Shown: in pieces, positions 284-39,925 of the stretch
How positions within the stretch are numbered: position 1 is the first letter of the stretch
How the letters are laid out: every line of letters starts with the position of its first letter
Virus record (IMG/VR): IMGVR_UViG_3300026546_000010
Location: 1-39,925 of that record
Reading direction: 5' to 3' (one strand)
Origin: a virus
Lineage: Duplodnaviria > Caudoviricetes
DNA: 39,925 bases
Position numbers and translations under genes: made by a program
The notes under the pieces: model-generated
Databases searched by the model: none
Seen by the model: only the letters and a program-made list of their open reading frames with translations
What the model was told of the DNA's origin: nothing

Positions 284-2548
284 ATGTCCAGTGAATATGA
301 ATTTCATTCTTATATAACGGCGAATCAACTCCAGAAGGAACGAGCACGTAAAGATAAAAAAATAGTAGAGGTCATCTTAGAAAAAAACAAAACGGGTCTC
401 AGTATATCTGACTATATGAGAGACGATATTTTTCATGGCGTAACGCACAGTATAAACAGGTACAACAAACTTGGAATAAAATATTGGTTCGGTGGGCATT
501 ACATGTTTACAGACATGAGCAGCCAGCAAGCAGTAATAGAACAGTTCCTAATAGAAGATGGAGCTAGACAGGCAACTGACTTTTTGTCAATACAAGAAAG
601 AAGACGAGGACTAATAAGCCAACTACTACAGTCACTATCAACATTGTCCCAGAATGATCACGAATTAAGAAAAAAGGAACACACAGAGCAAGGCGATGTC
701 TTTACGGGGTATATTGAAGTAGATGGTCACACATGGCACATGTCAGAATATATAATCGATGAAATTTCTGGAAATATAATTATTCCAATAACAAGATGGG
801 ATGGCACAAACAAAATCGAGGACGAATATGACACAGGCCTTCCAGGAAAGTCAACACAGCAAGGTGACAAAATAGGTGTTGTGCTGCAATACAATGTAGT
901 TTCAGACATTGACTTGTCATACTACTTCTTCTCACAAGATACTAAATATAGAGAAGTAGGGAACACTTCATATAAAGACATGAAGACAATGCCATTTGTT
1001 TCACTAAAAGATGATCAAAATGACGAGAAGCCGTATTACCTACTTGATGAAAAAAATGTGTTGAGAAGAATACGCGAAAAAACACTATCAGCAATAAATG
1101 TAAAATTGAAAGATGTATCCAAGAATATCTTTGAAGGACAAGAAATTCCTGAATTAAACTCAACTGAGTGGAAAAGCAAATTCGGTAAATGGTACAAGCA
1201 TGATAGTGAACTGAAAGAACAGTTCAGCACCGAACAAGAGTATCATGATGATCTGGTAGAAAAAAATGAAAATCAAGACCAGAGCATACGGCAAGTATCC
1301 GATGCTCATATAGGGTTTGCAGTAACACCATTGTATATAAATGAGCTCAGTGCATATGCAGCATATTTCACGCTAAAGCCATTACTGTTGGAATACAAGC
1401 ACAAGGGACCAGTGAAAATAAGAGTAGGATCACTCAGACAAACATGGAGTTTTCATGGTGTACGAATTGTACGCAAACAGGGGGTTCCAAAGAATATCTA
1501 TGACACTGCTACGCGAGTAAATAAAAACAAAACAAAAACAGGATGGTACATAAAGTCATTCTCAAAAAAGAAAGACGAGGATGAAAAATATGTGCACGAT
1601 GAAAACCACTTTACTGAAGAAGGAATTGGTGGCGATGACGATGATCCAATCTTAGAAACCTTGACTGAAGTCGGAGTGATGAACCCCCCCTCAACAGAGG
1701 GGAGAGAGAAAAAAACCATATATGAACTGAGAGTCATAACAGCTCCCAATGAATACACAGAAATACGAATAGTTGGATGGCAAGGAGTAAGCACAACAAC
1801 GCAGAAGCACAATCCAGATTACCCAGATGGAGAAATAGTAACAACGTCATCAGTGGATCTGTGTGATATATACGATACTGCAACGTTCATAAATGGACTT
1901 TTAGTACCATTAACATTCAAGGCGTTCAAGTCTGTTCCAATTTTCAAGAGAGACCGACTAACCAAAGAAACACTTATGATTGTTGTGCAAGGAGTAGCTG
2001 TTTCAGAAACACCGTGGTATGCAACACTACTCTTTAAGATTTTCATGATTGTACTTATTGTGGTGGCCACAATAATATTCGCACCAGCAGGGCAAGTAGG
2101 AGCAGCCCTTTTAAGCCTTGGAATGGGGATGGCTGCCTCATATGCACTAAGCTATATTGCCAAAATGGTTAAGAGCCCATTACTTATGGGAATCATAACA
2201 TTTGCTGTGGGGCTAATCATGCTTGGCGGAGCAATAAGCATGTTAGACATGATTTCTTTGGCAGTTGAGGCAACTGGGACATACATGAACCAGAAGATAA
2301 TGATAAAAGAACTTGAAGTACGCAAGAAAACACGAGAAGCAGAAGAGCATAGAAATAAATTAGCAAGAGACGTAAAGAAACTTGAAGACAAATTTGGGTT
2401 AAATAAAGAAAGCAATACTAAATATTTGCTGTACTTAGCCTCGCTGCCACCAGTAGAACATCCAGATGACTTCTTCGGCAGGGCATTAAACACCAATCTA
2501 AATGAAATCAATATGACTGAGCCACTAAAATTACCAGACATTGGATAA
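284..2548 (+). CDS. Virion protein with C-terminal transmembrane region (N4 gp53-like)
   Basis: 754 aa; PWY..LFKI followed by several hydrophobic helices and a coiled coil; synteny with the N4 late block. Confidence 0.6.
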   Translation: MSSEYEFHSYITANQLQKERARKDKKIVEVILEKNKTGLSISDYMRDDIFHGVTHSINRYNKLGIKYWFGGHYMFTDMSSQQAVIEQFLIEDGARQATDFLSIQERRRGLISQLLQSLSTLSQNDHELRKKEHTEQGDVFTGYIEVDGHTWHMSEYIIDEISGNIIIPITRWDGTNKIEDEYDTGLPGKSTQQGDKIGVVLQYNVVSDIDLSYYFFSQDTKYREVGNTSYKDMKTMPFVSLKDDQNDEKPYYLLDEKNVLRRIREKTLSAINVKLKDVSKNIFEGQEIPELNSTEWKSKFGKWYKHDSELKEQFSTEQEYHDDLVEKNENQDQSIRQVSDAHIGFAVTPLYINELSAYAAYFTLKPLLLEYKHKGPVKIRVGSLRQTWSFHGVRIVRKQGVPKNIYDTATRVNKNKTKTGWYIKSFSKKKDEDEKYVHDENHFTEEGIGGDDDDPILETLTEVGVMNPPSTEGREKKTIYELRVITAPNEYTEIRIVGWQGVSTTTQKHNPDYPDGEIVTTSSVDLCDIYDTATFINGLLVPLTFKAFKSVPIFKRDRLTKETLMIVVQGVAVSETPWYATLLFKIFMIVLIVVATIIFAPAGQVGAALLSLGMGMAASYALSYIAKMVKSPLLMGIITFAVGLIMLGGAISMLDMISLAVEATGTYMNQKIMIKELEVRKKTREAEEHRNKLARDVKKLEDKFGLNKESNTKYLLYLASLPPVEHPDDFFGRALNTNLNEINMTEPLKLPDIG

Positions 2549-2563
2549 AACGAGGACTATAAT

Positions 2564-3427
2564 ATGAGATACACAGACTCACCATTCAAAGCAGCAACGC
2601 AAAACAGCAGTTTCGCATCAGGAAATTCCGGCAAGTGCTGTCAAAGACTAAAATGGACACCAGATGGAGGTGTTACCAAACAGACACCTAAAACAAAAAT
2701 GCTAAGAAGAAGTGCACACGGAAAAGCATCAGCGAGCACAAGAATGTCATCAGGTGGTGGCGGTGGAGGAGGAGGCGGCGGAGGATGGATGCAGGCAGCT
2801 GGATTGATTATTCAAGCAGTATCAACCTTCGCAAACGTCTACTTGGGGTTCAAACAACTAGAAGTTGCGAACAAGCAAGGTGCAGCCGCATCGTCAAATG
2901 ACAGAAACAATGCATGGCTTGCAAAAGAAAAAATCAGAAACTATCATAATAGAGTTGCGAAACAATCTCAGTATCAAATGCATGATCAATCAATAAAAAG
3001 TGACGCATACCTGAGTAGTCTGTATAACTCCTCTGGAGGGTTGGACGCTCAAATGCGAACAAAAGACTATTCCCCAGAAATCAAATCATATGATTGGAAT
3101 AGTGGCTCTGTCAAGGGGTTCAAAGAAGAGGGTCGAAATGAACAAGCATATAACGACTACCAAAAAGAACTCAAAAGAATACAAGGCGGAAAAACGCAAC
3201 AATCAGCATTTGCTCCATCCACACAAAGTAGAACATTAGGCTCAACAGCACAAAGTGCTTTGGCAACAAATGCACTGGGTGGACCAGATACGCAATCACA
3301 AATCATAACAAAGCCTGGAGCAGTGGTACGAAAAAAATCATTGGGAGCAGAACCCAAAGAAAACAAAGAAGAATTAGCAGCAAACGAAGAACTTAAAAAC
3401 AAGAAAAGTCAGTTGGCTACAGCATAA
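2564..3427 (+). CDS. Putative ejection protein (N4 gp52-like)
   Basis: 287 aa; poly-Gly tract then GW...YLGFKQLEVA hydrophobic segment; RBS GAGGA; synteny. Confidence 0.5.
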   Translation: MRYTDSPFKAATQNSSFASGNSGKCCQRLKWTPDGGVTKQTPKTKMLRRSAHGKASASTRMSSGGGGGGGGGGGWMQAAGLIIQAVSTFANVYLGFKQLEVANKQGAAASSNDRNNAWLAKEKIRNYHNRVAKQSQYQMHDQSIKSDAYLSSLYNSSGGLDAQMRTKDYSPEIKSYDWNSGSVKGFKEEGRNEQAYNDYQKELKRIQGGKTQQSAFAPSTQSRTLGSTAQSALATNALGGPDTQSQIITKPGAVVRKKSLGAEPKENKEELAANEELKNKKSQLATA

Positions 3428-3439
3428 GAAGGATCAATT

Positions 3440-8200: not shown

Positions 8201-8994
8201 TAACCACTGAGCTGAACAACCTCCCAGTAGAAGAACGGGCAGCTTCGCCAATAAACAAAGAAATAATAACAGCCAAAGCTGATCTACAAGCATTAGTAAA
8301 AAAAGTAAACACGCTTGTAGAAAAGGGGCTAGGGAAGGTAAAAACCAGAAGAGACAAAGTACGAGCAGCGCAGAAGCATTGGCAAAAGAAACCAACGAAA
8401 CAGTCAAACGAACAAACCGAACAGACACCAAAAGATTCCACGCCAGAAACAGAGCAAACAGCTAAACCAGAAACAACACAGCAGTCTCAACAAGAAAGTT
8501 CACAGAAGACGGCACAAGAGCAAGAAAAGCAGCAGGAGGATACCAAGGCACAAGAGCAAGAGAACAGCGCTCAAAATGACAGTGAACCCCCAAAGAAGCA
8601 GAATACGAAAACTGAGCAGAAGCAAGACACCGAAGAACAAAAAACAGAGAAACAAACAACTGAAAATGAACAGACGCAAGAACAAGAGGATAGATCACAG
8701 CAGAAAGAATCAGAGCAAGAAAAAACAATCGACGACATAGATAATGAAGTAATCATCGATTTTTGGAAAAAGCACGAATTCAAACCAGGTGAAGAAGAGA
8801 CAACCGAAGAAACAGAAACAAACGAAGATACAGAAAATGATACAATACAGGCAGTAGATGAAGCTGCATTTGCCGATAAGCGAGCAATTACAGAAGAGGA
8901 TATAAAAACAATGAGCAAAGAAGAGGAATCACTCTTCGACAAAAGACTAGAAGGAATAAAGAAATTCATAGATAATCTCCCAGAGTGCTCATGA
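5212..8994 (+). CDS. Large internal virion protein, probable N-terminal part of a split vRNAP, with an N-terminal SNase/thermonuclease-like domain
   Basis: 1260 aa; IIDGDG..LRAAGYDASE..DKGAYGR match the SNase motifs; Gly/Ala hydrophobic region, EIIQEE motif, Q/E/T/K low-complexity tail; only Cys is the penultimate residue. Confidence 0.6.
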   Translation: MPYSSVEIASKLMGVENPGSRIASDDPNDVTTTIQKEDTIIEREREKAKKIYGSAPVTFSTEEAIKKEEQSDQGWQTGTVYSIIDGDGIFIKEMEGQELRAAGYDASEVEHPGEEHTEREQRNAKRLANMWGVPADSVTTEDVYEQGWKDTTKLLFGLTKTNINEKFKIGDTSYYRTHPPAYNDLNIPIQYKIIDKGAYGRPIVIMKNPITGEIVNQSFDLPGYRMGFKDAAEKAGMKTSDEIQPFLAPLAGAYGSDKKYAYKPKNWDTMDPLQRTKWNLASKKSQNYNQGALEHAFKSFAGTAGSLLAGAGDGLLDYASSISDEALGTTFGNSTLFEDFKDEDIWQRAIGYNDIEEKKNIAAVDQYIKNGDYGKAALHFASNAAIVAPQMLGYLVPVLASMPVAATVWSFDLLSDQKDAYKKATNKDMTLGEQTGALALNYVTSYLEAIVGGKILGKGGWGVVGKQMGKLFKPFTKMVAPLENKAVSKGFAEAAKLAAKKINPQTLTGRVIKRVADAPGAKLGADVVMEIIQEETENVHQEYWAKGGDTKYDSIGKYISEVAKGHVISKDQAISTAVQAGVGHLMMRPKAVAADAARISGVPFKMVGNHFDRREAANLTREDAAALQVDRAAQEKAANAGHAETMKTLEALDSAQTKQDLIDSGVDADTLQKVQVTNGEEVYNKHTDLADKTVEKAISFVNNFSEEGKRDAKDKAEFDRQMKEVINAVGIETKGRTKEEIANDLETMTDEQKGTMLAIIDSTIKGDVGSSMHGIAADIKVDTAQQAAHISRAYVAQAAALRKKHVRNAKKTSNENSYFVRRRQKKVGADKLFHNLPKLINKAVSKGKTNFKFMDDFTTKALIQAKQDFAGNKDVVASIDTVLKSRKTTFKNRADKVDSLISEDGMVGISGEKEIDIRSINDAISQNPTDAFTIATIGDSIDSLAEAKVISKAQQKILHQRLESVSDVNSLHSNFKEEPAAFWKTQMDKTRQQIKDLTTELNNLPVEERAASPINKEIITAKADLQALVKKVNTLVEKGLGKVKTRRDKVRAAQKHWQKKPTKQSNEQTEQTPKDSTPETEQTAKPETTQQSQQESSQKTAQEQEKQQEDTKAQEQENSAQNDSEPPKKQNTKTEQKQDTEEQKTEKQTTENEQTQEQEDRSQQKESEQEKTIDDIDNEVIIDFWKKHEFKPGEEETTEETETNEDTENDTIQAVDEAAFADKRAITEEDIKTMSKEEESLFDKRLEGIKKFIDNLPECS

Positions 8995-17699: not shown

Positions 17700-18320
17700 T
17701 TACCAGCCCTTGGGCACTTCAGGGGCTCTACCACCTACTGCCGGAGAACTTGCTTGAGCTTTATTTGCCAGACGCTTAATGGGATTGCGAGCAAGAAATG
17801 CTGCAACATCTTCTGCAATATTTTCCCCATTATCTCCTGTTCCATCTGGAGCCATCCAGTGAGAAATCATGTTACGGATAGAAGTTGTTCCATTATAGAA
17901 ATTCTCATATTGACGAACCCCAACAAGGACTTTCAGACCAATTGTTTCCTTCAAGATGAAAGCACCAATAGTATCATCTCTGAACTTGACTTTACCATCT
18001 TCGCCCTCAATTGACTCATTGCCAGTTGTAACACGCTCATAGCGAATCAGTTCCTGAAGACCGGGAAGCAAGAACGTCTTATTGTTCTTGGTGAAAGTAG
18101 CTGACCCTGTTCTGCTCTTAACAGCAGTGGAGTAGAACAATGTACGATCTCCATCTGGAAGATAGAGCTCTACTTCCCACATGGAAGCACCACTATCTGT
18201 TTTACGAATAAAAGAATTCTTGATCTCGGCAGCATAAACTCCAGAATCAATTGGGCCGTCAGAAACTTTCTGAGCAGCAACGTTTTTAGCCAAGTTGGCA
18301 TCTACATCAAATGTAGCCAT
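17700..18320 (-). CDS. ssb: Single-stranded DNA-binding protein (N4 gp45-like)
   Basis: Start MATFDVDAN at 18320 (RBS AAGGA); DSGVY..I..S...TDSGA, TF.K..K...LPG, flexible tail ending in W. Confidence 0.65.
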   Translation of the reverse strand: MATFDVDANLAKNVAAQKVSDGPIDSGVYAAEIKNSFIRKTDSGASMWEVELYLPDGDRTLFYSTAVKSRTGSATFTKNNKTFLLPGLQELIRYERVTTGNESIEGEDGKVKFRDDTIGAFILKETIGLKVLVGVRQYENFYNGTTSIRNMISHWMAPDGTGDNGENIAEDVAAFLARNPIKRLANKAQASSPAVGGRAPEVPKGW

Positions 18321-18361: not shown

Positions 18362-18438
18362 TGGTTGGCAAGAAGGGACTCGAACCCCTATTGTATCGGT
18401 TATGAGCCGACAGCATTAACCAGTTATGCTACTTGCCA
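18362..18438 (-). tRNA. tRNA with CAT anticodon (Met elongator or Ile2)
   Basis: TGGCAAG/CTTGCCA acceptor stem, loop CTCATAA, T-arm GGTTCGAGTCC, encoded ACCA end. Confidence 0.93.
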
Positions 18439-23112: not shown

Positions 23113-23596
23113 CATGAACTCCAACTTCTTTCACATACATATCAAACGCAACAATAATCTCCTTGCTGCATGATTGGTGAATGAGCTTTTTAAGATTATG
23201 CTGAAGTCTTTGCACCTCACCATAATATGCCTCCATAGCTTGGTAATGTTCTGCCTCAGCAGACTCCTCTGGTCCAATTGTCGCAAACTCGTGTATTTTT
23301 CCAAGCATATTTTTCCTTTCGTCATCAGATATATCCGCTTTCTCGATAATTAAGCGAATAAGAGCATACGCTTGAATAGCGTATTGTTCTTTCATTTCAG
23401 CAGAAGATTCCTGGGACATAAAAGCCTCATAAGTTGGTCTGAAATCATTAATTGCATTTTGTTGACTACTATCAAATAGTATCTTGTGAAAAGACTCATT
23501 TGATGCTTCATAGTTCTTTAAATTCAAATGAAGATCCTTGAGAGAAATCTCATTTATTCGCTGAAACTGTTGAATGCATTTTTGTACATCAATCAT
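23093..23596 (-). CDS. Hypothetical helical protein
   Basis: Start MIDVQKC after GAGGAG; overlaps both neighbours. Confidence 0.6.
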   Translation of the reverse strand: MIDVQKCIQQFQRINEISLKDLHLNLKNYEASNESFHKILFDSSQQNAINDFRPTYEAFMSQESSAEMKEQYAIQAYALIRLIIEKADISDDERKNMLGKIHEFATIGPEESAEAEHYQAMEAYYGEVQRLQHNLKKLIHQSCSKEIIVAFDMYVKEVGVHDDITGI

Positions 23597-24293
23597 TGTC
23601 GTACTCCTCAATGAGTTCAATTACTCTCTTGATCCCACCCTCTTCAAGAAACGGTTCAGGATAAAAATCCTCTGGTGTTTTCACACTAAGATTTTTACTG
23701 TCCTTTGTCTTTGACAATTGAAGTCGGTATTTAAGACCAGTAAGGCTTTCCTCATCATCATCGTTTGTGATATTAGTATAAATTACAAACTGGAAGAATG
23801 ACTCAATACCAACATTTTTAGTTGATCCCTTTACAAATGCCTTAATAGGAATTTGATTATTCTCAAGATCACCTTCTACAGTATGAGAAAGAAAGATCCA
23901 TGTTTTCTTTGAGGTGCTAGTAGCAAAATCAAGCAGCTCAAACAAAGCTTGTTGATAAACCTTCCCCCAAGCACCACGACTATCATCTGAATTGACAACA
24001 TATTTTTGCTCAAGCTTACGAAGCCAATGAGACAAAGTGTCAACAATAATATACTCACTGGCAGGATCATCTTCGAGCAACTGGAGGTTGTTGACCAAGG
24101 TCAAGGGATCAGTGGGGACAATCCAATCATGAATTTTGTTTTTCCCACGAAAAGGTAAAGCATTTTTACCATCAATGTCAATAAAGGTGATCTTTTCACC
24201 TTCCGCCATTACTAGCTCTTTCAAAGAGAACGTTTTACCAGTTCCACTTCCTCCAAGAACAAGTAGTGTTTTTTTGTTGGTTGTAACAGACAT
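23589..24293 (-). CDS. AAA-24/Sak4-like ATPase (N4 gp44-like)
   Basis: Walker A GGSGTGKT, IDIDGK, Walker B IIVDTLS, IFLSH; start MSVTT after AAGGA. Confidence 0.8.
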   Translation of the reverse strand: MSVTTNKKTLLVLGGSGTGKTFSLKELVMAEGEKITFIDIDGKNALPFRGKNKIHDWIVPTDPLTLVNNLQLLEDDPASEYIIVDTLSHWLRKLEQKYVVNSDDSRGAWGKVYQQALFELLDFATSTSKKTWIFLSHTVEGDLENNQIPIKAFVKGSTKNVGIESFFQFVIYTNITNDDDEESLTGLKYRLQLSKTKDSKNLSVKTPEDFYPEPFLEEGGIKRVIELIEEYDND

Positions 24294-27822: not shown

Positions 27823-29907
27823 TTATCGATTTTGTTGCTTACGAACAATATTCTCAAGTTCGGTATCACCAAGAGGGTTTGCAAGCATATTATTGATATA
27901 CATGCACTCACTCAGCACACTATGATCACCAATGTCAATCAAGAACGTAGCATATCTCATGATCATGCTATTCCTATTGCCATCTGAGGTATTCATAAGA
28001 ATATACTTCTGCATCCCAAGTTTTCTGCGATCAATTTCGTCATCCATGTCAACCATGCTTCCAAGGGAAGACAGGTTCGGGACAATAACCTGAGAACGCT
28101 CTGTATCTGGAATACAGCAATTTGCATCAAATAGATCTGCTTCATTTTTAAAAATCTCACATCCACCAGAGGTAAACCATAATCGTGAAACATTACGAGT
28201 AGATACGTCATAAATAGGCAATTCAAGAATCTCAGAGATATTCTCATAGAGTTGCTTATGTTGTTCTGGATCGACATGAAACAATGTCTTGGTAGGGAGT
28301 AAGATACGAAAACGATCAGTTACAATACCATTCTTCTCCACTTGATGAGATTTTGTGGTATAAATAATATAAGTATATTTATCCAAAAGAAGCTTCGCAT
28401 CATCAAGTGAGAACCCCTCATCAATATCAAAGGCAATCAAGTTTTGACCTGGGATATGATTTGCTGCCTTTCTGTGACCATCAGGAGCAGAGGTAGAAGG
28501 ACTAAAATGAGACAAACAGAATGACTGAATGTCGGGATTTTGAACCAATGCCTCAACAGAGGGAGCCTCACCAAAGAATGGATACTCCTTTGGAGTAAAG
28601 TTCGTAGCCTTCTCTGGGTGCTTGTTATATCCAGAAGAGATGGATATTAGCATCTTGCTTAGGTTAGTCTCTGGGAGGGGTTCTACTTTGAATCGCTTAC
28701 CTTTCATGGTAAGCTTCATCCCCTTAAATCGGGTATAGTCCTCAAGTAGTTCAAGCTGATAAGCAAGATCTTGTTTTGTAGCAAACACAACACCATACTC
28801 TTCTACATCAAAGATAGAAATGTAATCATTTTTATTTTTGGCAGTAGAGAACATAATCTTATGAGCACTTGGTGGAACAAGAACCTTCTTAAGCGCATCC
28901 ATAGAAGACGAAAGTATAGTAATCGTTTCCTCCATATCTGCCTTAGTAACATTCTTATTCATGTTTGCAATAGCAACAAGAGCAGAAGTTCGCTCAAGAT
29001 TGTCAATCATTCGAGCAAACATGTTATTGAGTGAACTCAAATCCTCGTTATACTCACTGATCTTTTGACGAGCAAAGGCATCAGCAACCTCAGCTGCTTC
29101 TGGAGTAATGTGGATAATAGTAGAAGGAATATCATTCAACATAGTTCCAAGTTCTTGGACGTATTCTTTTAGAACGGTGGCCTCACTGTCACCATGCTGT
29201 ACTGACTCCATAGGAGTAAAATCAGTCCAGCTAAAATTACTACGTCTCCCAAGACCAGAAGTAATCATCTCAACGAGAACCCCATGCTTCTGCTTTGACC
29301 TACGAAATGGCTCTGGTGAGCCAAACAGAAGAATGTTTGTAGGTACTTCGCTGACAGGCGGGTACTTCTCATTGACATTGGTACTACCATCGCTCTTGCC
29401 ATCCTGCCAAAGCTTCATTAGAATCGAAAGAGTATCAGCAGTAATTTCATGCCCAAACTCAGTCGAGACTACGTTCAGTGATCCAATCTCAGTATTGTTG
29501 TAGAAGTTGGCAACTCTCATCATACCTTCGATAGAACCCCTCAATGCTACCTTGTATTGCTTTGGGATGATTACATTTGTATCATCACTAGCAGCATCAT
29601 TGGGGGTTCCAGCTGTTAATCTACGGAAGTCCTGTTCGATATTTGGAAGATATGATTCAAACACCTCACTAAACATTTCTTCACATACATTCAGAGATGT
29701 ATCCTTTCCATACCCTTGGTTAGCAAAGGTAACAGCAAAAAAGTTTGCATATCTCAATATACTAGAGTCTGGCTTTTTCACCATGAACCGCTTGCGCCCT
29801 AGAGCAGAAGAAAGTACAAACAGAAATGAGTTTCGTACAATACTCATCTCGACAGTTGTGCCAGTTCGTCGTTCAACCTCTCGTTTCACGAAGTTTAATA
29901 TTTCCAT
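27823..29907 (-). CDS. DNA primase/helicase-like replication protein (N4 gp43-like)
   Basis: P-loop ANQGYGKD, EFG, NILLFGSP; primase-like AFDID, YTTKSH, DRFRILLP; PriCT-like GNRNS tail. Confidence 0.78.
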   Translation of the reverse strand: MEILNFVKREVERRTGTTVEMSIVRNSFLFVLSSALGRKRFMVKKPDSSILRYANFFAVTFANQGYGKDTSLNVCEEMFSEVFESYLPNIEQDFRRLTAGTPNDAASDDTNVIIPKQYKVALRGSIEGMMRVANFYNNTEIGSLNVVSTEFGHEITADTLSILMKLWQDGKSDGSTNVNEKYPPVSEVPTNILLFGSPEPFRRSKQKHGVLVEMITSGLGRRSNFSWTDFTPMESVQHGDSEATVLKEYVQELGTMLNDIPSTIIHITPEAAEVADAFARQKISEYNEDLSSLNNMFARMIDNLERTSALVAIANMNKNVTKADMEETITILSSSMDALKKVLVPPSAHKIMFSTAKNKNDYISIFDVEEYGVVFATKQDLAYQLELLEDYTRFKGMKLTMKGKRFKVEPLPETNLSKMLISISSGYNKHPEKATNFTPKEYPFFGEAPSVEALVQNPDIQSFCLSHFSPSTSAPDGHRKAANHIPGQNLIAFDIDEGFSLDDAKLLLDKYTYIIYTTKSHQVEKNGIVTDRFRILLPTKTLFHVDPEQHKQLYENISEILELPIYDVSTRNVSRLWFTSGGCEIFKNEADLFDANCCIPDTERSQVIVPNLSSLGSMVDMDDEIDRRKLGMQKYILMNTSDGNRNSMIMRYATFLIDIGDHSVLSECMYINNMLANPLGDTELENIVRKQQNR

Positions 29908-29930
29908 TATTTATTTCCTTTCAAAGAAAG

Positions 29931-30604: not shown

Positions 30605-30861
30605 TTGTTTTCTCCTTCTGTCAAGCTATCATCAACCATTTCCTGGAAACGATACTCTTCAGCAGTGGCCTGCTCGTCAGCAAGATATTTCTCACAAAAT
30701 ATAGCGTATTCCTCAGAATACAAAGCAATACCATCACTGGTGTCAAACACTAGGCTACGAAACATCTCAATAGCTTCGTCCCTATCGGTACGAAGCTTAT
30801 GTTCTATCCATTCAAGTTCGACATCAAAGTCGTCAATAATATCCTCAATTGAATCAATCAT
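30601..30861 (-). CDS. Small acidic protein
   Basis: Start MIDSIED after GAGG; D/E-rich. Confidence 0.6.
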   Translation of the reverse strand: MIDSIEDIIDDFDVELEWIEHKLRTDRDEAIEMFRSLVFDTSDGIALYSEEYAIFCEKYLADEQATAEEYRFQEMVDDSLTEGENK

Positions 30862-31183: not shown

Positions 31184-31196
31184 TGTTTCTCCTTGT

Positions 31197-32861
31197 TTAA
31201 AATGGTATTTCTTCGTCACCAAACTCGTTCTCAATAACAATGTCATATGAGACGTTAGTTTTATTTTTCTCCTCTGCAAGTCTATAAGCATAAACATATG
31301 GCGGTTTTTCCTTCACAAACGCAGGAAGAGTTTTGATTTCGGAGATCCTACGACCTTTTTGTACTTTTAGCTGAAGATTGCGTTTAAATACAACCATTAA
31401 GCGAGCACGGTACTCAGGTATCTCATCGATAATTTTATTGAGGGGTTCTAGCGTATCCTCGACTTCATCGTCAGAGTAATAGAACCCATATTTTCTAAAG
31501 AAAAATTCATAAGCAACTTTCACCGCAACAAATAAATCATTGGTAGCAGTAAACAGTGCAGCCAAACGACTGCTAGACAAATCACGGATTTGCCGTTCAG
31601 CCTTCTTGATTTCTTCTGTAGCGGACAATACAAGCTCTCGTGTAATTTCAAGAGGGATTCTTGTCTCATTCTGAGAATGAATAAAGTTCACTTCAGAGAT
31701 GGCATGCTCTTCATTGAGACGCTTTAGTGCTTCTTTGTCACCAGCAGGAGCAGGGATGTACTCAGTATCGGGGAACCCCAATCTCTCAATAAGTCCAGAG
31801 AGGTCAAGGATCTCACCATGCTTCTTTCCAGGGGCAGTACGAGTCAGTCGCAATGCCATTTGGTAATACAGCGAGCGTCTCTTTGTTGGACGACACAGAA
31901 CCCCTGCATGGAGGTCTGGTACATCCCATCCAATAGAAATCTTGGAGACAGAGACAACACACAGTGGGGGTTTATTCCCCTCATGGAATAAGTTCTCATC
32001 CATGAGACCACCATTTTTAAAGTGGTACATGAGCTTAGTCGTATCATCCCCAGCTTTACTATGATAGGCAAAGGACCGAAAACCTGCCTTCACCAATGCT
32101 TCATTCAATAAATCAGCAGTAGCAATACTGTTAGTAAACACTGCTACCTTCTTATCTTTGTACCCACGATCAATCATAGATTTAACCGCGAGACGAATGT
32201 AGCTCTCAGAGCCTACAAGCTCTTCAATGGACTCGGCAGCATATTCCCCTGCAACAAGCGGTAAGTCGTCATATGATAGATCCTGAGACCATCTAGGCAC
32301 ATAAAATTTCAATGGAGAGAGATGGCCAGCATTGGTAAGCTCTTCTACAGTAGCAACAGTAATGCTGTCACTAACTTTATCAAGAGCATAACCATTTGCC
32401 GTCCAAGGGGTTGCACTCCATAAAATAGTCATAGTGGGGCGAACTACAGAAAGAATAATTCGAGTTCGCTCTCCAGTCCATGCAACGTGACCTTCGTCAA
32501 TTTGAACAATATCGAAGCTATGTTTAAATGTCAACTTGTCCTGTCTGGCAAAAAAGGTTTGAGCCATAACAAGTTGAATTTGTTGTGATGGATCAAACTT
32601 TTCTTCTTGTCCTGCCTTGAGTACAGAATGTTTGATACCCATTGAAGTTAATGTTTCATTAAGTTGATCTAACAAATTAGAAAAACTAATTACGATCATT
32701 ACACCTGAATCCTTAAACTTCTCAGCAACAGCGCATAGCATAACAGCTTTACCAGAACCCCCCGGGGATTTAACCACTAGGGTTTCTGTACCGAATGCAT
32801 AGTGGGACTCTATTGAGTCCACTGTTTTTGCTTGGTAATCTCGTAGCTGAATCATGACCAT
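31197..32861 (-). CDS. Superfamily 2 DExH helicase
   Basis: LRDYQ, SPGGSGK, DEGH, SATP, GWDVP, YYQMALRLTR; C-terminal DEEIPF. Confidence 0.88.
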   Translation of the reverse strand: MVMIQLRDYQAKTVDSIESHYAFGTETLVVKSPGGSGKAVMLCAVAEKFKDSGVMIVISFSNLLDQLNETLTSMGIKHSVLKAGQEEKFDPSQQIQLVMAQTFFARQDKLTFKHSFDIVQIDEGHVAWTGERTRIILSVVRPTMTILWSATPWTANGYALDKVSDSITVATVEELTNAGHLSPLKFYVPRWSQDLSYDDLPLVAGEYAAESIEELVGSESYIRLAVKSMIDRGYKDKKVAVFTNSIATADLLNEALVKAGFRSFAYHSKAGDDTTKLMYHFKNGGLMDENLFHEGNKPPLCVVSVSKISIGWDVPDLHAGVLCRPTKRRSLYYQMALRLTRTAPGKKHGEILDLSGLIERLGFPDTEYIPAPAGDKEALKRLNEEHAISEVNFIHSQNETRIPLEITRELVLSATEEIKKAERQIRDLSSSRLAALFTATNDLFVAVKVAYEFFFRKYGFYYSDDEVEDTLEPLNKIIDEIPEYRARLMVVFKRNLQLKVQKGRRISEIKTLPAFVKEKPPYVYAYRLAEEKNKTNVSYDIVIENEFGDEEIPF

Positions 32862-33718
32862 AGTCCCGGATCAGCAACTCGTTTAGAGATAGGGGGAACT
32901 TCGGATTTATAGAAGGGACAATTGTCCTTAACGGAACAGTACCAAACACATTTGGTTGGGACGGTTACTCCGTCTATTTTACGAATCCATCTGTCCTTAC
33001 ATCCATCCTTGAGCCTATTGTCTGCTACAGCATCATGCATTTCGCGAACCTCATCAAAGATTTCACTTTGAATATCGGCAAGCATAGCATGTACTTCTTT
33101 CATGGTGAACACTTCGTCCACCCAGTTTGTTTTCTCAAATACTCTTTGCTTTCGGCTAAACATAGCATCTCTGACAAAAAACGTATTAGAGAGGATAATG
33201 TGTACCCTATCATTCTCATCAGCATCTATATCGTCACGAAGAGGGGAAAAAAACAAATACAAAAGCATTTGAAGCTGGGGAAGGTATCGAGCAGCAGTTT
33301 CCTCACGTTTCTCGTGTAACGCCTTCATTTGGTACGATGACGTAAGCTTATAATCAATAATCTCAATAGTTCGTATGGCTTGATCCTCTGAATCTGTACC
33401 AACCAAAATAAGATCAGCCGTACCATGCAATGCACAAGAGACAGAATCAATTTGAACAACATGACCCATGTAATGTTCGGGCATAGTTGACTTATCAAAT
33501 AGCAACTTCTTGTCACTGATCAAAGCATCCATGCCTGCATGAAAAATTGTACCAATTGTATTCATACCAATATTGGTTTGACTCTCTTCTGGGAAGGAGA
33601 TACGCAGTGCATTCTGCACTGGATCTGCTCCTCGCATAGACGCTGAATACCGTATAGTACCAGGTAGGAAACGGCTATTGTATTTAGTTGCCTCCATGAG
33701 ACGTTGCTCAAAATTCAT
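32852..33718 (-). CDS. Cas4-like PD-(D/E)XK exonuclease
   Basis: GTIFH, GTADL, IIDYK, QLQM and C-terminal C...CVWYC..C cluster. Confidence 0.8.
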   Translation of the reverse strand: MNFEQRLMEATKYNSRFLPGTIRYSASMRGADPVQNALRISFPEESQTNIGMNTIGTIFHAGMDALISDKKLLFDKSTMPEHYMGHVVQIDSVSCALHGTADLILVGTDSEDQAIRTIEIIDYKLTSSYQMKALHEKREETAARYLPQLQMLLYLFFSPLRDDIDADENDRVHIILSNTFFVRDAMFSRKQRVFEKTNWVDEVFTMKEVHAMLADIQSEIFDEVREMHDAVADNRLKDGCKDRWIRKIDGVTVPTKCVWYCSVKDNCPFYKSEVPPISKRVADPGLWS

Positions 33719-33727
33719 AATTACTCC

Positions 33728-35140
33728 TTATTGATAATACTCGTTAAACATCTGAATGATTGCAGCATCAGACATATCCTCAAGATAGTCATCTACTTCA
33801 AGAAGAATCCGAAGCATTCTGACGACAATTACACGCTTCATAGAAGCAGGCTCCGCATTAAATGTGTTCACAAACACAAGTATTTTACCAGAAAAGTGCA
33901 TATTGCTGAATGACAACAATGGAGCCCCAATATTACCCATAAACTCAAACAAGGAGACAAGCTCTTCATCAGAGAATGTTCCTAACAATTCATTAGTAGC
34001 CGACAGGGTAAACCTCTCAAATGGAGACATAGGTTGGGGTTCACCCATATCTGCAAACAAGCTTTTGCTATGATTGCCTCTATAAGTAACCTTTCTGCCT
34101 TGGAGCTCATATGGAGTATGATGGGTCGTAGATGTAACAATTGAAGTAGTAATATTGTCTGGGTCGATCAAGCTGTAATCAACAGGAAAGTATTCATTGT
34201 CCCACTTTTCAAGCAAGAAACGAAACAAATCAGTCTTAAGCCCAGCACTTTTATCTTTTAGGTCAAGAAGTACATAGCTATACTTTGCCTTCTCGGAAGG
34301 CTCTTGATCAGGCTCTATCCCGAACAATTCATGAATTGGGGTCGGTTGAACAGTGGGGGCAGGGAAAAATTGTCTTCCGCCAACAATGGTAACATTTTGG
34401 CCACGAAGATAATTTAACTTATCATCGGAACTACTGAACAGTCTATATTCACTATGGATCAGCTCAGCCAGCTTATCACCGTGCTGTAAAATTCCACTAA
34501 ATGAAGGAATGTTCTGACCATCTTGCAGTGGGTAGACAACACCCGGGTTGCTAGAATCTTTCCTTAGATCAACAGTAGAAAAGTTCGAGATACCAGTATG
34601 ACTATACCGATATTCTCCATCGCTGCCAATAGCGAGAACCGATTCATTCTCCTTGACCTTCCTGAACGTAAGCCCTTCACCTGGGTGAGCATGAATAGTA
34701 TTGAACCCCACAAGGTTCCATTCTACATGTTCAAACAAATGACTAATGAACTGGAATGTTTTGCTTTTGTAAAGCTCTTTAATCTTTTTATGAGACTTTT
34801 TGATGGCTTTTTCGTTTGCAGCAGAAACATCATCAAGATGAAAATGGACAGAACCATAACTCACTTGCTGTGGATAATTATAAGCCACCAGTGGGAATCC
34901 AATGTATAAAAGAGTGTTATCTATAAGCACTTTTCCAACAAGAGCAGTATAATGGAACTGCCATTCATTCTTGAACTCACGAACTTCACCAGAAGCAGCC
35001 TGGATTTCTTCCAGAGCACGATTGCTCCAGAAGAGTAAACTAAACAAGTTAGTTCCAGCCTTGTCTGTTATTTCCTTAGTCTCCTGCTTGTTATTCATCA
35101 GCTGAGACCTCATCGCTGTCGTCTTCTTGTTGTACTGCAT
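33728..35140 (-). CDS. JAB/MPN+ metalloisopeptidase-like protein
   Basis: NEWQ glutamate, YPQQVS..SV, IHAHP (~34682-34693), FSTVD (~34568-34582). Confidence 0.72.
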   Translation of the reverse strand: MQYNKKTTAMRSQLMNNKQETKEITDKAGTNLFSLLFWSNRALEEIQAASGEVREFKNEWQFHYTALVGKVLIDNTLLYIGFPLVAYNYPQQVSYGSVHFHLDDVSAANEKAIKKSHKKIKELYKSKTFQFISHLFEHVEWNLVGFNTIHAHPGEGLTFRKVKENESVLAIGSDGEYRYSHTGISNFSTVDLRKDSSNPGVVYPLQDGQNIPSFSGILQHGDKLAELIHSEYRLFSSSDDKLNYLRGQNVTIVGGRQFFPAPTVQPTPIHELFGIEPDQEPSEKAKYSYVLLDLKDKSAGLKTDLFRFLLEKWDNEYFPVDYSLIDPDNITTSIVTSTTHHTPYELQGRKVTYRGNHSKSLFADMGEPQPMSPFERFTLSATNELLGTFSDEELVSLFEFMGNIGAPLLSFSNMHFSGKILVFVNTFNAEPASMKRVIVVRMLRILLEVDDYLEDMSDAAIIQMFNEYYQ

Positions 35141-36401
35141 TTTCTTCCTTTATGTTTCTTAATTGATTAATTGCCTTCTGCAACGCAGGAAATTCCGAAA
35201 GAATAATTTCGTCCGCAAAGCTAGATGACATTACGGCTGATGCAAAGAGCATCTTGAAATCAGCCATCTTTTCATCTGGAATGTCCTCAAGTCCAAGTGA
35301 TGTTATAACATCCTGGATACTACCAACTTTAAGCACTTCTGGCTTCATGCCAATACGTTCCATCGTTCTATCAACAGAGGACCGGTTAAATATCTCAAAG
35401 GAAACAGCAATATTAAGTGCATTCCAAAGAGCATGATCAGGAGCACAAACAGCAGTATTCAGTGGGGAATCAAAATTGCAATAATTCAATGCAGCAAATC
35501 CATGAATGGAATAGGCTGCACCAGAATGTGTGCAAATCCCATAGCGAGCTCCATCATCAAAAGATAACTTATTGTTCTCGTCAATATCAATACTATACTT
35601 GTTGTGATGAACCACAGAGAAGGACATGTTTGCATGAAGCAAAGGTCCTAAACTCCAAGAATTGCCATCATAACCAAGAGCATATCCATAGAAAGGAAAT
35701 ACAAGTCCCTTGTATGAGCCAAGATGCGCTGGAGAAAACATGAAGGCATTATCTGGCGAAGCCAGGTTCCCTTCCGTATCAGTAAAGATCGATGCATAAT
35801 CAACCTTAACTCTGCTATGATGCACCTTCTCAGCGAAGTGCACTTTAGTATAGAGTCTATGCTCGGTAGCAACACGATCATCAATAGCGATATATTTATA
35901 GATAGCAGACTTATAGTCAATATAATTGGACAAATCCTTGTCAACATAGGTACTGTCTGTAACGATGAGGCATGAATACTTACGAGTATCAAGCGGTTCA
36001 CCATTAACAACGAGTCTCTTTGCTATATAAGGATGAAGAAGATTAAACTTATTACGCTCCTTGTCAACAACAATAAGACCAACAAACGATGATCCGGACT
36101 CCAAAAAAACAGAGTACCCAATCTCAATACAGTCATTGAGAGATAGATCAAAGTCGCCAATTTGTGTATATTCATATCCAATAAAGGATGGTCGAGTTAG
36201 AAACTCGGTCTTGGGATAAAACTGTTCAACAGTTTCATTAACCAAATGAATAGCACTATGAGCGTTCACAAAAGCAAATGTAGTTTCGCTAGGAAACTCA
36301 GAGCTAAAGTCCTGTGTGCTTTCTTCCTTTTCACTATTAACTATATTATCAAATTCATCAATGGAATATTGAAGAATTTTATTCTCTAACATTGTGTGCA
36401 T
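35091..36401 (-). CDS. Prokaryotic E2-like (ubiquitin-conjugating fold) protein
   Basis: Start MHTMLE 1 nt after the E1 stop; PLLHANMS...GICT...LNYCNFDSP resembles the E2 HPN..G.IC motif; lies between E1 and JAB. Confidence 0.55.
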   Translation of the reverse strand: MHTMLENKILQYSIDEFDNIVNSEKEESTQDFSSEFPSETTFAFVNAHSAIHLVNETVEQFYPKTEFLTRPSFIGYEYTQIGDFDLSLNDCIEIGYSVFLESGSSFVGLIVVDKERNKFNLLHPYIAKRLVVNGEPLDTRKYSCLIVTDSTYVDKDLSNYIDYKSAIYKYIAIDDRVATEHRLYTKVHFAEKVHHSRVKVDYASIFTDTEGNLASPDNAFMFSPAHLGSYKGLVFPFYGYALGYDGNSWSLGPLLHANMSFSVVHHNKYSIDIDENNKLSFDDGARYGICTHSGAAYSIHGFAALNYCNFDSPLNTAVCAPDHALWNALNIAVSFEIFNRSSVDRTMERIGMKPEVLKVGSIQDVITSLGLEDIPDEKMADFKMLFASAVMSSSFADEIILSEFPALQKAINQLRNIKEENAVQQEDDSDEVSADE

Positions 36402-36402
36402 C

Positions 36403-37602
36403 TTACCACCCCCTTGAAAGAATGCGTTGATCACTAAGATCAAATTCAAATTGCTTCCTGTTGAGACGCACATCATTACGCACGTCCCATAACACTGAAG
36501 AAGATGAATAGCTAAATGAGTCCAAAATCGGAGTATGTGGCACAAGATTATTAGCATCTTGAGTCACAAGCAACTTGGCGAGATCATCATCTACATCTGC
36601 AAGAAATTTAATAAACTCAAATGCTGCAAACATTTGGTTCAGATAAAACTTCTCTAAAGCAATAAGTCCATACGTTTCATTAAGGAACCCCACATCAACT
36701 GGAGGGTTAATCCGAAGAGAGATATATCTCCCTTTGTGAGTTAACGCAAACCAGTTGTGTCCCCTTGCTTGAAGCCTCTGACGAGTAGCCATGTCTGGGG
36801 CTCCAACGATAATATGATCAGTAGGGAATGTGCTAGTATAATAGTCATCATAGATAGCCTTCGGAGTCAACCTATTCATTAATCGTGTAGGAATTGAATT
36901 TATCTTCAATGTACCATTTGTTGGAACAAACGGAATTCTAGGTAAGTTATCAAATTCGTACTTATCATTATCTGCAACCCATATACTTTTAAACAAGCCA
37001 TCATAGTCTGCAATACGAGCAAACTCTGACATCCAGTAAAGCAGGTTAGACCCAGAGCCTCCAACTCCAAGCACAAACAATTGATGTTTTCTTTTCTTAA
37101 GCTTCGAGAGAACCCCTCTAAGCTCAGTCTTGCTATGGCTGATAAACTTGAGAATAACCTTATCAGGAATTTTTCTTACATCAAGATATTCAGCACATGA
37201 GTCAGTAAGAGCAACACATTTTTGACTTCGTATTTGTTTTTCATCATATGACACTGAAGGCTTAGTAACAATCCTAGAGAGCAAAGGAATATTGCGTACA
37301 AGATGTGTCATCAGAAATGCCTCTGCAAAATAATTCTTGTTGTTGTTTGTAACAACTGTTTTCTGAGAAGTTTCACGAAAATAGTATCGATTTACTAATC
37401 GTGACATCAAGGTTTTCCCCAAGTTCATTTCCTTATATCGGAAAAAAACATCGTTCGACAACCCTTTTGCTTTATAGCCATCATTTACAATTTCATGTCC
37501 ATTGGTTGATACCAATGAACCATCATTATCTTTAAAAGATGCCTTGCCATAATACTCCGATCCAGTAAAAAACGGAGCACTATATCCCTGTTTATTGTTC
37601 AT
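36403..37602 (-). CDS. ThiF/E1-like adenylating enzyme
   Basis: VLGVGGSGS, ADNDKYEFDNLPR, LKI, IVGAPD..TR, LNQMFAA. Confidence 0.82.
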   Translation of the reverse strand: MNNKQGYSAPFFTGSEYYGKASFKDNDGSLVSTNGHEIVNDGYKAKGLSNDVFFRYKEMNLGKTLMSRLVNRYYFRETSQKTVVTNNNKNYFAEAFLMTHLVRNIPLLSRIVTKPSVSYDEKQIRSQKCVALTDSCAEYLDVRKIPDKVILKFISHSKTELRGVLSKLKKRKHQLFVLGVGGSGSNLLYWMSEFARIADYDGLFKSIWVADNDKYEFDNLPRIPFVPTNGTLKINSIPTRLMNRLTPKAIYDDYYTSTFPTDHIIVGAPDMATRQRLQARGHNWFALTHKGRYISLRINPPVDVGFLNETYGLIALEKFYLNQMFAAFEFIKFLADVDDDLAKLLVTQDANNLVPHTPILDSFSYSSSSVLWDVRNDVRLNRKQFEFDLSDQRILSRGW

Positions 37603-37672
37603 TCTATCTCCCTTTGTAATATATTAGTAAAGACTAAAAAGATAATCTTAAATAATATATAAACACAAATAG

Positions 37673-37692
37673 GCCACGTATCTCTACGCGGC
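37673..37692 (-). terminator. GNRA-capped hairpin, probable attenuating terminator
   Basis: GCCGCGTA-GAGA-TACGTGGC then CTATTTGTGTTT, just after the 47-aa ORF. Confidence 0.6.
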
Positions 37693-37698
37693 ACAAAT

Positions 37699-37842
37699 TT
37701 AGATCCCAGAGTCACTTGACGCACTAAGTGTTTGTGAGCTAGGGGTTCTCACCTGTATAGGCTGACCGCCATTGGCAGCCCCTTTTTTCTCTACGGCCTC
37801 GCGGATAATCCGCTGAGCTTCTGTCTCTTTTTGCTCGGCCAT
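37699..37842 (-). CDS. 47-aa peptide, candidate conjugated modifier (not in ORF track)
   Basis: MAEQKETEAQRIIREAVEKKGAANGGQPIQVRTPSSQTLSASSDSGI; near-perfect RBS AAGGAGGTG; TAATG coupling to the upstream gene. Confidence 0.78.
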   Translation of the reverse strand: MAEQKETEAQRIIREAVEKKGAANGGQPIQVRTPSSQTLSASSDSGI

Positions 37843-38282
37843 TATTCACCTCCTTTATAAGTATCGTTACTGAAAAGACTAGAGTCGTCACATTCATCAT
37901 CGGCAGACTGCTCATCGACCTCTCCAAAGAGGTCAAACTCGTCAATAGCCTCAATGAATTGGTTCATCATTCCGCGAACATCCACGGAATTACCAAGGTC
38001 ACGCATTGCCGCATCAACCATTGCGGTTGACGCAGCTACCGCGTTGGGCTTGGTTGCGAACCACTTGATAACAACGCCTGCGAAGATGTTTGCCACGACA
38101 GCTTTACCCCAAGGGGTATAGAGATACTTTTTAGCCATCTTGCCTTTCCCTTTCAGGTTCTTGGCAATAATAGCTACAATGCGGTCATTGAGGACCCCAC
38201 CAATCTCTTGCTTCGTGACAGTCTTTGTGGCATCAGCGTTAGCTGCCATTAGTGCGGATAGTACCGCTTTTGTTTCGATCAT
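37842..38282 (-). CDS. Conserved phage protein (YxxTPxGKxVVAN family) with acidic tail
   Basis: 146 aa; RBS AAGGAG; Ala-rich helical; ends YKGGE. Confidence 0.7.
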   Translation of the reverse strand: MIETKAVLSALMAANADATKTVTKQEIGGVLNDRIVAIIAKNLKGKGKMAKKYLYTPWGKAVVANIFAGVVIKWFATKPNAVAASTAMVDAAMRDLGNSVDVRGMMNQFIEAIDEFDLFGEVDEQSADDECDDSSLFSNDTYKGGE

Positions 38283-38395
38283 TAGTTCTCCTTATGCATA
38301 AGAAAGATAGCCTTCAAAAGGCATAGCGACTCGATTGGTCTTACAACAACAGCCAAGCACAAATCATGTACTAGTGACCATGAATGCCAATATAT

Positions 38396-38608
38396 TTATG
38401 TGTGCAATGATTGGTTCTTACGCCTAATAGCTAAGCGATAGAGAACATAAGCACAAATCACACTGTTCCCGACAGGGAACAGTGCTAAGCAAAGAACGAA
38501 TAAGTATTGAAACAAAACATTTTTGTTTCTATACTCTAGTATCTTTCTCTTGAAAAAGCACAGTATAGTGATTGCGCTAAGCACATACATTCCGTAAACA
38601 AACAACAT
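38396..38608 (-). CDS. Small membrane protein
   Basis: 70 aa, two hydrophobic helices; TAATG coupling. Confidence 0.6.
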   Translation of the reverse strand: MLFVYGMYVLSAITILCFFKRKILEYRNKNVLFQYLFVLCLALFPVGNSVICAYVLYRLAIRRKNQSLHT

Positions 38609-39063
38609 TACGTCTCCTTTTTGTTCATTTCTACAAGAGCATTATGAGCATCCAGTAGGGCTTTTCTGTTTTTGTTTAACCAAGCGACACCATCTTTTGT
38701 CCAAGTGGACAAACGGGTGTCTGTCATCTTTGCCCATTGATCAGGGGTAAAGGCCTTACAAGAGATCTTTATCTTTTTCTCTGAAAAAGTAATCGGTCTC
38801 CCATCAACGAAAGAACCAACTAACCACTTAGTGGGGGTTCCCCATGCAGTGATCTTGTCAGCTCGAATTTCAAAATTCGTGACAAGATGACCATGCAAGA
38901 CAAGCTCCTTAACTCTAAGAACCCCATGTACACCGAGGTTCCCTCTAACGAGGAGTTTGTTATATTTTGCTCTACCAAAGATATAAACATCACCCTTGGA
39001 CTCAACAAAATCCTCTCTGTTATACACGTTCTTCGTCGAAACTATGTTGTCAAACAACATCAT
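38608..39063 (-). CDS. Beta-helix-like protein, paralog of 22037..22645
   Basis: LLVRGNLGVHGVLRVKELVLHG repeats; KISCK....DQW...D......W shared C-terminal domain. Confidence 0.6.
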   Translation of the reverse strand: MMLFDNIVSTKNVYNREDFVESKGDVYIFGRAKYNKLLVRGNLGVHGVLRVKELVLHGHLVTNFEIRADKITAWGTPTKWLVGSFVDGRPITFSEKKIKISCKAFTPDQWAKMTDTRLSTWTKDGVAWLNKNRKALLDAHNALVEMNKKET

Positions 39064-39266
39064 GCTTGATTCCTTCTTTCTTCTAGTTCTTTGATTTGGT
39101 CAACGAAATCATTAACACCGTTAGGATCTTCTGGATCAATATTGCTGAATAACTTCAGCATGTCAGAAGCGTAACCTCTCTCACTATCAGAGAGGGTATT
39201 ATCAGCCATAACTAGCATACCGATTCCATCAACCAATTCTTTAAGTTTGTCGTCTGTTATTGTCAT
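39060..39266 (-). CDS. Small acidic hypothetical protein
   Basis: 68 aa; RBS AAGGA; ATGA overlap. Confidence 0.65.
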   Translation of the reverse strand: MTITDDKLKELVDGIGMLVMADNTLSDSERGYASDMLKLFSNIDPEDPNGVNDFVDQIKELEERRNQA

Positions 39267-39359
39267 GTTTGTCCTTTAGGTTGGTATTAGGGCATTTTAC
39301 CCTAAAAACAATAACTTACTCTTGAGGATTTTCACTAAGATAAAAATATGGAAATCATT

Positions 39360-39394
39360 AAAAATAAGGAAAACTATCAGGGACTTTCGTCCCT
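39360..39394 (-). terminator. Intrinsic terminator
   Basis: AGGGAC-GAAA-GTCCCT followed by GATAGTTTTCCTTATTTTT. Confidence 0.65.
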
Positions 39395-39422
39395 AACAGC
39401 CATTATGAAAGGAGGAATAAAG

Positions 39423-39498
39423 TGGGCGAATCTATGAATCGAACATAGAACCGGAAGTGGTCGTATAGGGCTCACACAACCAGTGTACCTACTTCGCC
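39423..39498 (-). ncRNA. tRNA-like RNA or degenerate tRNA
   Basis: GGCGAA/TTCGCC closing stem, perfect T-arm CTATG-TTCGATT-CATAG, central 9-bp stem with 7-nt loop, 3' CCA-like end; no canonical D stem or U33. Confidence 0.5.
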
Positions 39499-39523
39499 AT
39501 AAAAGAGCAACGCGAAAGACGCG

Positions 39524-39757
39524 CTACTGTTCGTGTCTATCAAACTCAGTTACAGGGAAATATCCCCTAAACTCCTGATAGAGTTTTTTACCTCCTTTTT
39601 CTCTCTCCTTGTCTGTCGCCCTACGACAAATAAAGGAAATGTCATCAATAGATATAACAACATAGAAGTTGCTGCTGTACCTATTACCATTTATGCCAAC
39701 AAGCATAGGCTGTTTATTAACATAAACGGTTCTATTGGATAGTGGACCATCTAGCAT
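39524..39757 (-). CDS. Hypothetical protein
   Basis: Start MLDGPL after AAGGAG. Confidence 0.55.
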   Translation of the reverse strand: MLDGPLSNRTVYVNKQPMLVGINGNRYSSNFYVVISIDDISFICRRATDKEREKGGKKLYQEFRGYFPVTEFDRHEQ

Positions 39758-39836
39758 TTTTTCTCCTTTCATGTAGAAATAGAAAGGTACTAAGATAAAG
39801 TACATATCTATTCCTACATAGATAGACATAAAAAGA

Positions 39837-39903
39837 GGAACCCCCCTCTAGCAATGCTATGCATACAGGAGGTGTATTATATCGCAACTTGCTTGGGGGT
39901 TCC
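39837..39903. other. Long imperfect stem-loop closed by GGAACCCCC/GGGGGTTCC
   Basis: Nested pairings GGAACCCCC/GGGGGTTCC, AGCAA/TTGCT, TGC/GCA, ATACA/TGTAT around loop GGAGG. Confidence 0.55.
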
Positions 39904-39925
39904 AGTATTGGCGGGGGTTCTCACC

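Follow-up and report, generated by a model that had tools for sequence, protein, structure and literature searches.

A dispersed heptamer in an N4-like phage fragment is a candidate primer-start word of its helicase-primase

What reads a seven-letter word that a phage spells dozens of times along its DNA? The 39,925-nt stretch analysed here, taken as a whole and called the window (positions 1 to 39,925 of IMG/VR virus record IMGVR_UViG_3300026546_000010; Duplodnaviria, Caudoviricetes), carries the heptamer GGGGTTC throughout and on both strands. An original prediction, made from the letters alone, had put the number of copies at about 58 and had proposed a self-marking or protein-binding site. 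We suggest that GGGGTTC is probably the single-stranded template word at which the N4 gp43-type helicase-primase encoded in the window starts primers. We favour this reading because of the count of the word, its even spacing on each strand, the kindred words found across the phage family, the T-to-G change that distinguishes GGGGTTC from them, and the motifs of an archaeo-eukaryotic primase (AEP) in the predicted fold of the enzyme.

Exact counting yields 58 copies, 32 on the plus and 26 on the minus strand, and all 20 coordinates given as examples in the original prediction are correct. An order-2 Markov model expects 2.95 copies in the window, which has a GC content of 39.3%, and GGGGTTC ranks top among all of its 7-mers, while each of the 21 single-letter variants has 0-5 copies; the original prediction had already noticed that GGGGTT[A/G/T] variants are few. 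Relative to the 44 open reading frames (ORFs) of the window, 51 sites lie inside and 7 outside, one of the latter in a tRNA-Met gene, where the word at 18382 may be present for tRNA reasons. The sites in genes span all six reading phases, which bears out the claim of several frames. When synonymous codons are shuffled within genes, the in-gene count of 52 (one site enters twice, from two overlapping ORFs) compares with 5.1±2.1 and a maximum of 13; genome-wide codon pools give 4.0±1.8 and shuffled codon order 2.2±1.4 (300 shuffles for each null). The protein sequence permits the word at 84 places, and 52 of these spell it, in support of the earlier proposal that selection acts on DNA rather than on protein. 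The accompanying statement that there is no strong strand bias can be refined: within genes the coding strand carries 35 words against 18 on the other strand, partly because the permitted places are themselves unequal (48 versus 36).

An assembly artefact, a possibility that the original prediction had raised, is an unlikely source of the enrichment, because public contigs reproduce pieces of the window and because relatives carry kindred words. The contigs come from one sequencing run and show 0-1 differences from the long pieces listed for 20001-39925; this run, the sole one found to hold the window, is possibly its source sample and therefore not independent. It contains 530 strain differences, 40 of them listed.

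Some smaller features of the word may be recorded here. The copies at 24581, 37742 and 39914 extend to GGGGTTCTCACC, two of these three being intergenic, and the last 90 bp of the window contain three words. A near absence of C directly 5' of GGGGTTC (1/57, against a background of ~9%) was considered as a clue to the first nucleotide of a primer and dropped, since C stands there in 18/59 cases on the GGGGTTC-rich contig L170.

The words are evenly distributed along each strand. Mean gaps are 1240 bp on the plus and 1526 bp on the minus strand, with longest gaps of 3706 and 3644 bp, and the coefficients of variation (CV) of the gaps are 0.72 and 0.59, where random placement would give ~0.97 (p 0.03 and 0.003). 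Permuting strand labels with positions fixed gives p 0.006-0.0075, and each strand is therefore evenly spaced on its own. None of 420 control words of similar abundance (median 1.04) has a mean per-strand gap CV as low as the 0.66 of GGGGTTC. Nine long records were subjected to this control-word test (the window, N4, G001, G002, G003, G004, G005, G007 and G009), and the family word falls within the lowest 2% of controls in six: the window, G001, G002, G003, G009 and N4. A pooled strand-label test on 18 partial loci, some of them close kin, gives p 0.0013. Furthermore, the strand opposite the primase gene is richer in the word in 9/9 long records (804 versus 618 pooled, with both gene orientations represented), the excess being individually significant in four. 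Orientations were not seen to divide between the two halves of the genome in six long records (Mann-Whitney p 0.2-0.9).

Kindred words are found across related phages, whose loci were retrieved with a primase alignment; a single-primase query returned no related locus. A scan of primase-flanking loci of at least 4 kb, without preset words, found TGGTTC-like words recurring. Twelve kindred hexamers picked after this unbiased scan were then counted in 89 related loci of at least 2.5 kb, which remained after removal of duplicates, of anything shorter and of six AEP loci that were distant or partial, and 76 of the 89, coliphage N4 among them, over-use at least one of the hexamers (P < 0.001). The enrichment thus extends to related phages, where the original prediction had proposed looking for it. 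TGGTTC is the leading hexamer in 54 loci, and TGGCTC, TGGCTG, TGGCTT, TGGTTT, TGGATC, TGGTAC, TGCTAC or GGGTTC leads in another 22. In the first 50 kb of coliphage N4, TGGTTC counts 153 versus 60, and the preferred word of PEV2 is TTGGCTT. Members of the word family occur in phages of E. coli, of Pseudomonas and of Rhizobium.

GGGGTTC itself is a derived, T-to-G switched form of this family word. It occurs 9 times in the 3088 bp of locus L065, whose primase is 43% identical to that of the window and is its sister in the primase tree (FastTree support 0.93). It is also abundant in three contigs (L170-L172) of a bacterial bin, G010, with 49 copies in 9468 bp, 7 in 2427 bp and 12 in 2288 bp at a GC content of 46-58%; these contigs encode an N4-like terminase, portal, capsid, primase N-terminus and helicase. 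The three full-length primases of this bin lie on TGGTTC contigs. A repeat locus search with a C-terminal primase alignment returned no further GGGGTTC lineage, and a complete second GGGGTTC primase was not found among the loci, L065 being cut in the helical bundle and L139 comprising residues 1-331 only. A tree of 59 primases contains six switches of word class, and the top six positions that track these changes (555, 541, 632, 543, 571 and 548) all lie in the AEP domain or the bundle. As a side observation, bin G010 (C30, C31 and C53, which are L170-L172, together with L136-L138) contains contigs of at least four N4-like phages, and one of its phage contigs has GGGGTTC every 190 bp, the highest density seen.

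By its gene content, named through PHROG profile matches and tblastn, the window is a fragment of an N4-like (Schitoviridae-like) phage. [quoted passage not shown] The large virion RNA polymerase (vRNAP) typical of N4-like phages is present as well (2363 aa versus 3500 in N4); it is ~1100 aa shorter than that of N4 and is preceded by a 1260-aa gene (5212-8994). N4-type capsid, portal and terminase genes lie outside the fragment and are present in related records. A Campylobacterota host is probable, because four related primase loci sit in a bin titled Sulfurovaceae. In one related record, G002, a 1455-aa polymerase adjoins a 3840-aa multi-domain protein.

The helicase-primase is the sole one of the 44 window proteins with a tblastn match in 8/8 long comparison genomes. 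An AlphaFold2 (AF2) model of residues 338-694, built with 75 sequences at a predicted local distance difference test (pLDDT) of 95, consists of winged-helix, AEP and helical-bundle domains (Table 1); a single-sequence fold of the C-terminus reached a pLDDT of 35 and was not used. The best Foldseek matches of the model are S-2L PrimPol (E 3e-6) and RepB' (E 4e-5), and a wide fold search agrees on the AEP domain with a modest Z of 7.8 (root-mean-square deviation 3.8, 138 residues aligned). D494, D496, H521, R534 and D567 are invariant in this domain. By this prediction, the window itself encodes an AEP that has the catalytic motifs and is joined to a helical bundle.

From the count, spacing, distribution and predicted fold we infer word binding, priming and a cost of gaps, which could combine as follows. 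The AAA+ ring of the helicase-primase would unwind the DNA and expose single strands, on which the AEP and helical-bundle domains would read GGGGTTC and start primers next to it. If either strand went without the word over a long distance, lagging-strand or restart synthesis would be held up, and selection would fill synonymous places until each strand has a word per 1-1.5 kb, an Okazaki-like spacing. Because the search of the related uncultured genomes found no family A polymerase, extension of the primers would fall to a host polymerase or to the AEP itself.

The family A DNA polymerase, gp39, is a core gene of Schitoviridae in the strict sense. Its Pfam family (PF00476) was found in 0/9 related records, G001-G009 (those behind L007, L008, L011, L012, L015, L019, L020, L034 and L035), seven of which are at least 90% complete, and in 10/14 controls. 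DNA polymerase III alpha was found in 0/5 related records, and N4 gp39 had no match in seven long records or the window fragment, with PEV2 as positive control at 1e-170. PHROG profiles named no DNA polymerase in the 56 ORFs covered out of the 105 larger ones of two complete records, family B being covered here without a search with its own model. A divergent polymerase in the related records is possible. With respect to RNA polymerases, the N4-type RNA polymerase II subunits have a clear match only in G007 among these nine records, and G005 carries a 749-aa single-chain RNA polymerase-like gene.

A broader scenario, which we put forward only tentatively, is that of a deep N4-like clade without its own DNA polymerase, in which one helicase-primase primes at dozens of genome-encoded words, followed by extension through a host polymerase or the enzyme itself. 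Word and enzyme might have switched together several times (TGGTTC, GGGGTTC, TGGCTC, TGGATC, TGGTAC and TGGCTG), and such pairs could amount to a natural specificity code of AEP primases, legible in genome sequences without further data.

Known priming systems offer partial parallels to the proposed primer-start word. Phage T7 has a helicase-primase, gp4, whose priming sites are short fixed words along the genome; gp4 is a DnaG-type enzyme with a zinc domain and sites of 3-5 letters, whereas the window enzyme is of AEP type and would read seven. RSF1010 RepB', a structure match, resembles the window primase in combining an AEP with a helical domain, and with ssiA and ssiB it provides sequence-specific priming on each strand, although at one long structured site per strand rather than at dozens of 7-mers. 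In N4, the dns/gp43 protein has the same order of an SF6-like helicase followed by an AEP, and the over-used family word, TGGTTC, is evenly spaced per strand; enrichment is ~2.5-fold in N4 versus ~20-fold in the window, and N4 encodes its own DNA polymerase. N4 dns is described, in the portion of PMC4889955 that deals with it, as an SF6-AEP fusion essential for replication.

Phage NrS-1 likewise has an AEP and a helix bundle, and its AEP primes at a long specific template word. According to a section of PMC8718748, the NrS-1 PrimPol primes at TTTGGTTA, starting just upstream of this site, which the helix bundle binds. The site and the N4-family word have TGGTT in common, which is suggestive. 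A helicase and an SSB are encoded nearby, with no separate polymerase annotated, and the domain order of the NrS-1 PrimPol is the reverse of that in the window primase. An excerpt of PMC7102993 gives two copies of the recognition site. In the NrS-1 sequence (L147:17062-17369), eleven AAGTGTAAC repeats in both orientations stand directly after the primase gene and overlap its only TTTGGTTA; this repeat region is probably the origin.

Several observations speak against a primer-start word. The NrS-1 site is not dispersed, with one exact copy among the 11 clustered repeats, and the idea that a dispersed array is shared with other AEP phages was rejected, the top words of NrS-1, LY5 and Bloomfield being clustered. 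A profile comparison of the window primase with the NrS-1 PrimPol was blank, and NrS-1 chains are absent among the fold matches listed for the window primase in both fold searches, although the two proteins may still be kin. Within the family, 13 of the 89 loci lack any enriched kindred word, and G004, G005 and G007 show little or no evenness of spacing. The strand bias of the window tracks gene direction and not genome polarity, as the coding-strand excess shows. The ubiquity of the primase is partly circular, 7 of the 8 genomes having been retrieved through it, and a wide distribution in the family is also seen for terminase, portal, capsid protein and vRNAP. The covariation of residues with words amounts to 5 independent pairs, with a non-significant p 0.06 in a domain-level test, and no residue conserved in TGGTTC primases shifts to the same letter in both the window and L065, where the bundle is cut off.

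The closest alternative keeps the same protein and changes the substrate. The winged helix of the gp43-type protein, predicted next to the AAA+ part, might read the word in duplex DNA, making the copies dispersed, iteron-like sites of helicase loading or restart. The NrS-1 repeats, in both orientations beside a primase gene, would fit such a role, and directional loading could likewise produce spacing per strand. However, GGGGTTC is dispersed, with no origin-like (iteron) cluster: no 300-bp stretch of the window has more than 3 copies, and the maximum for relatives is 3-5. The residues that covary most strongly with the word also point, weakly, to the AEP domain and bundle rather than to the winged helix, and we give duplex loading a small but appreciable chance. 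A packaging or ejection handle had been among the options of the original prediction and could still apply, with terminase, portal or virion RNA polymerase as its reader, since the genes for these proteins are as widespread in the family as the primase and the strand bias in pooled records is tied to genome polarity. It does not predict even spacing on each strand, however; both orientations are abundant and each is even alone, while one-way translocation would need no such arrangement, and we regard this option as improbable. Much the same low standing applies to a Chi-like recombination signal for a phage helicase-nuclease or for Sak4 and SSB. An orientation-dependent signal would also be expected to space per strand, and an SF2 helicase and a nuclease-like gene adjoin in the window and in most uncultured relatives, yet the word family occurs in N4 too, in which the window helicase and nuclease have no tblastn match, just as N4 gp37 and gp42 have none in the window.

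The remaining options of the original prediction fare worse. A self-mark, either a modification target or a protection from the phage's own nucleases, would suit a word that is non-palindromic and sharply defined, and a modifying gene could be located in the part of the genome that this fragment does not cover. No methyltransferase was found among the 44 window ORFs, in the N4 annotation, in the 56 ORFs covered out of the 105 larger ones of two complete relatives, or in a crude motif scan of 9 records, and this role seems very unlikely. Least probable of all is that the phage imitates a host signal, either Chi or a DNA uptake sequence, even though the density of the word resembles that of known uptake sequences. 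Forty genomes from the order of bin G010, the probable host order, were counted, and in 39 of them GGGGTTC falls below its reversed control; the exceptional genome, G014, has 23 copies versus 19.3 expected in 100 kb, a number in keeping with its GC content of 57%, and no primase match. In bin G010 itself, two further contigs carry 3 and 0 copies per 20 kb, and the word family crosses phages of unrelated hosts, so that for the genomes tested a host signal is largely refuted. The original prediction had also named two helix-turn-helix proteins as possible binders, and the two small ORFs taken to be these have homologues in 1/8 and 0/8 related genomes. Selection on DNA and a site read by a protein are the parts of that prediction which the data support, whereas the roles it listed are not favoured, the helicase-primase not having been among them.

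If GGGGTTC is the primer-start word, the site at which the N4 helicase-primase starts can be tested directly, and the family offers a natural series of enzymes with their words from which to learn how long template words are recognised by AEP primases. Replication demands would then shape synonymous codon choice genome-wide, with 52 of 84 permitted places in use. The word is also an inexpensive marker by which contigs of these phages can be binned, and it exposed the phage contigs in the bacterial bin. How AEP primases read such words is called unclear in a passage of PMC7102993. We found no report of GGGGTTC or such an array in N4-like phages and no published recognition site of N4 gp43 in a literature search that left subscription papers, N4 theses and supplements outside its reach; the accessible portion of PMC11531552 mentions one Schitoviridae-related Sulfurimonas phage, without remarks there on its primase or polymerase. 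The T-to-G switched word lineage, the control-word spacing test and the missing polymerase are what the window newly contributes.

Table 1 Positions of the word array and of annotated features in the window
Feature	Position	Strand	Basis or remark
GGGGTTC array, 58 words	1481..39920	both strands	32 + / 26 −
N4 gp43-type helicase-primase, 694 aa	27823..29907	−	PHROG 2135 E 1e-55; tblastn to Schitoviridae primases
N-terminal AAA+ part, MCM/DUF3987-like, residues 1-340	28888..29907	−	MCM6 profile match E 0.0018; PF13148 on homologues
Predicted winged-helix domain, residues 341-411	28675..28887	−	AF2 pLDDT 95; many winged-helix matches Z 5.5-7.2
Predicted AEP primase domain, residues 416-600	28108..28662	−	S-2L PrimPol, RepB' fold matches
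C-terminal helical bundle, HBD/PriCT-like by position, residues 602-694	27826..28104	−	model; PF08708 on some homologues
N4-like virion RNA polymerase, 2363 aa	9022..16113	+	PHROG 2206 E 7e-24
Single-strand DNA binding protein	17700..18320	−	PHROG 743 E 3e-8
tRNA-Met	18362..18438	−	GGGGTTC at 18382 falls inside
Sak4-like annealing protein	23589..24293	−	PHROG 124 E 3e-18
SF2 helicase	31197..32861	−	common to 7/7 uncultured relatives, not N4
PD-(D/E)XK nuclease-like gene, beside helicase	32852..33718	−	PF12705 E 7e-4 (weak); 6/8 related genomes

Other features of the window concern neither the word nor the primase. The palindromes GGATCC (1 site), CTATAG (2 sites), CATG, ACGT, CTAG and GGCC are under-represented, as expected under restriction avoidance. 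Three adjoining genes of unknown function (399, 488 and 470 aa) at 33728-37602 on the minus strand are found in G004 and G005 too, and they possibly form a ubiquitin-like conjugation module. The first has ThiF/E1-like look-alikes, which we treat as a lead only, and the third contains an HxH stretch that we take to be JAB-like, with no database support. At 20122-21995, also on the minus strand, three tandem genes carry five Lcl C-terminal (PF07603) domains; the joints among these genes are present in public contigs, and the tandem block may vary between strains.

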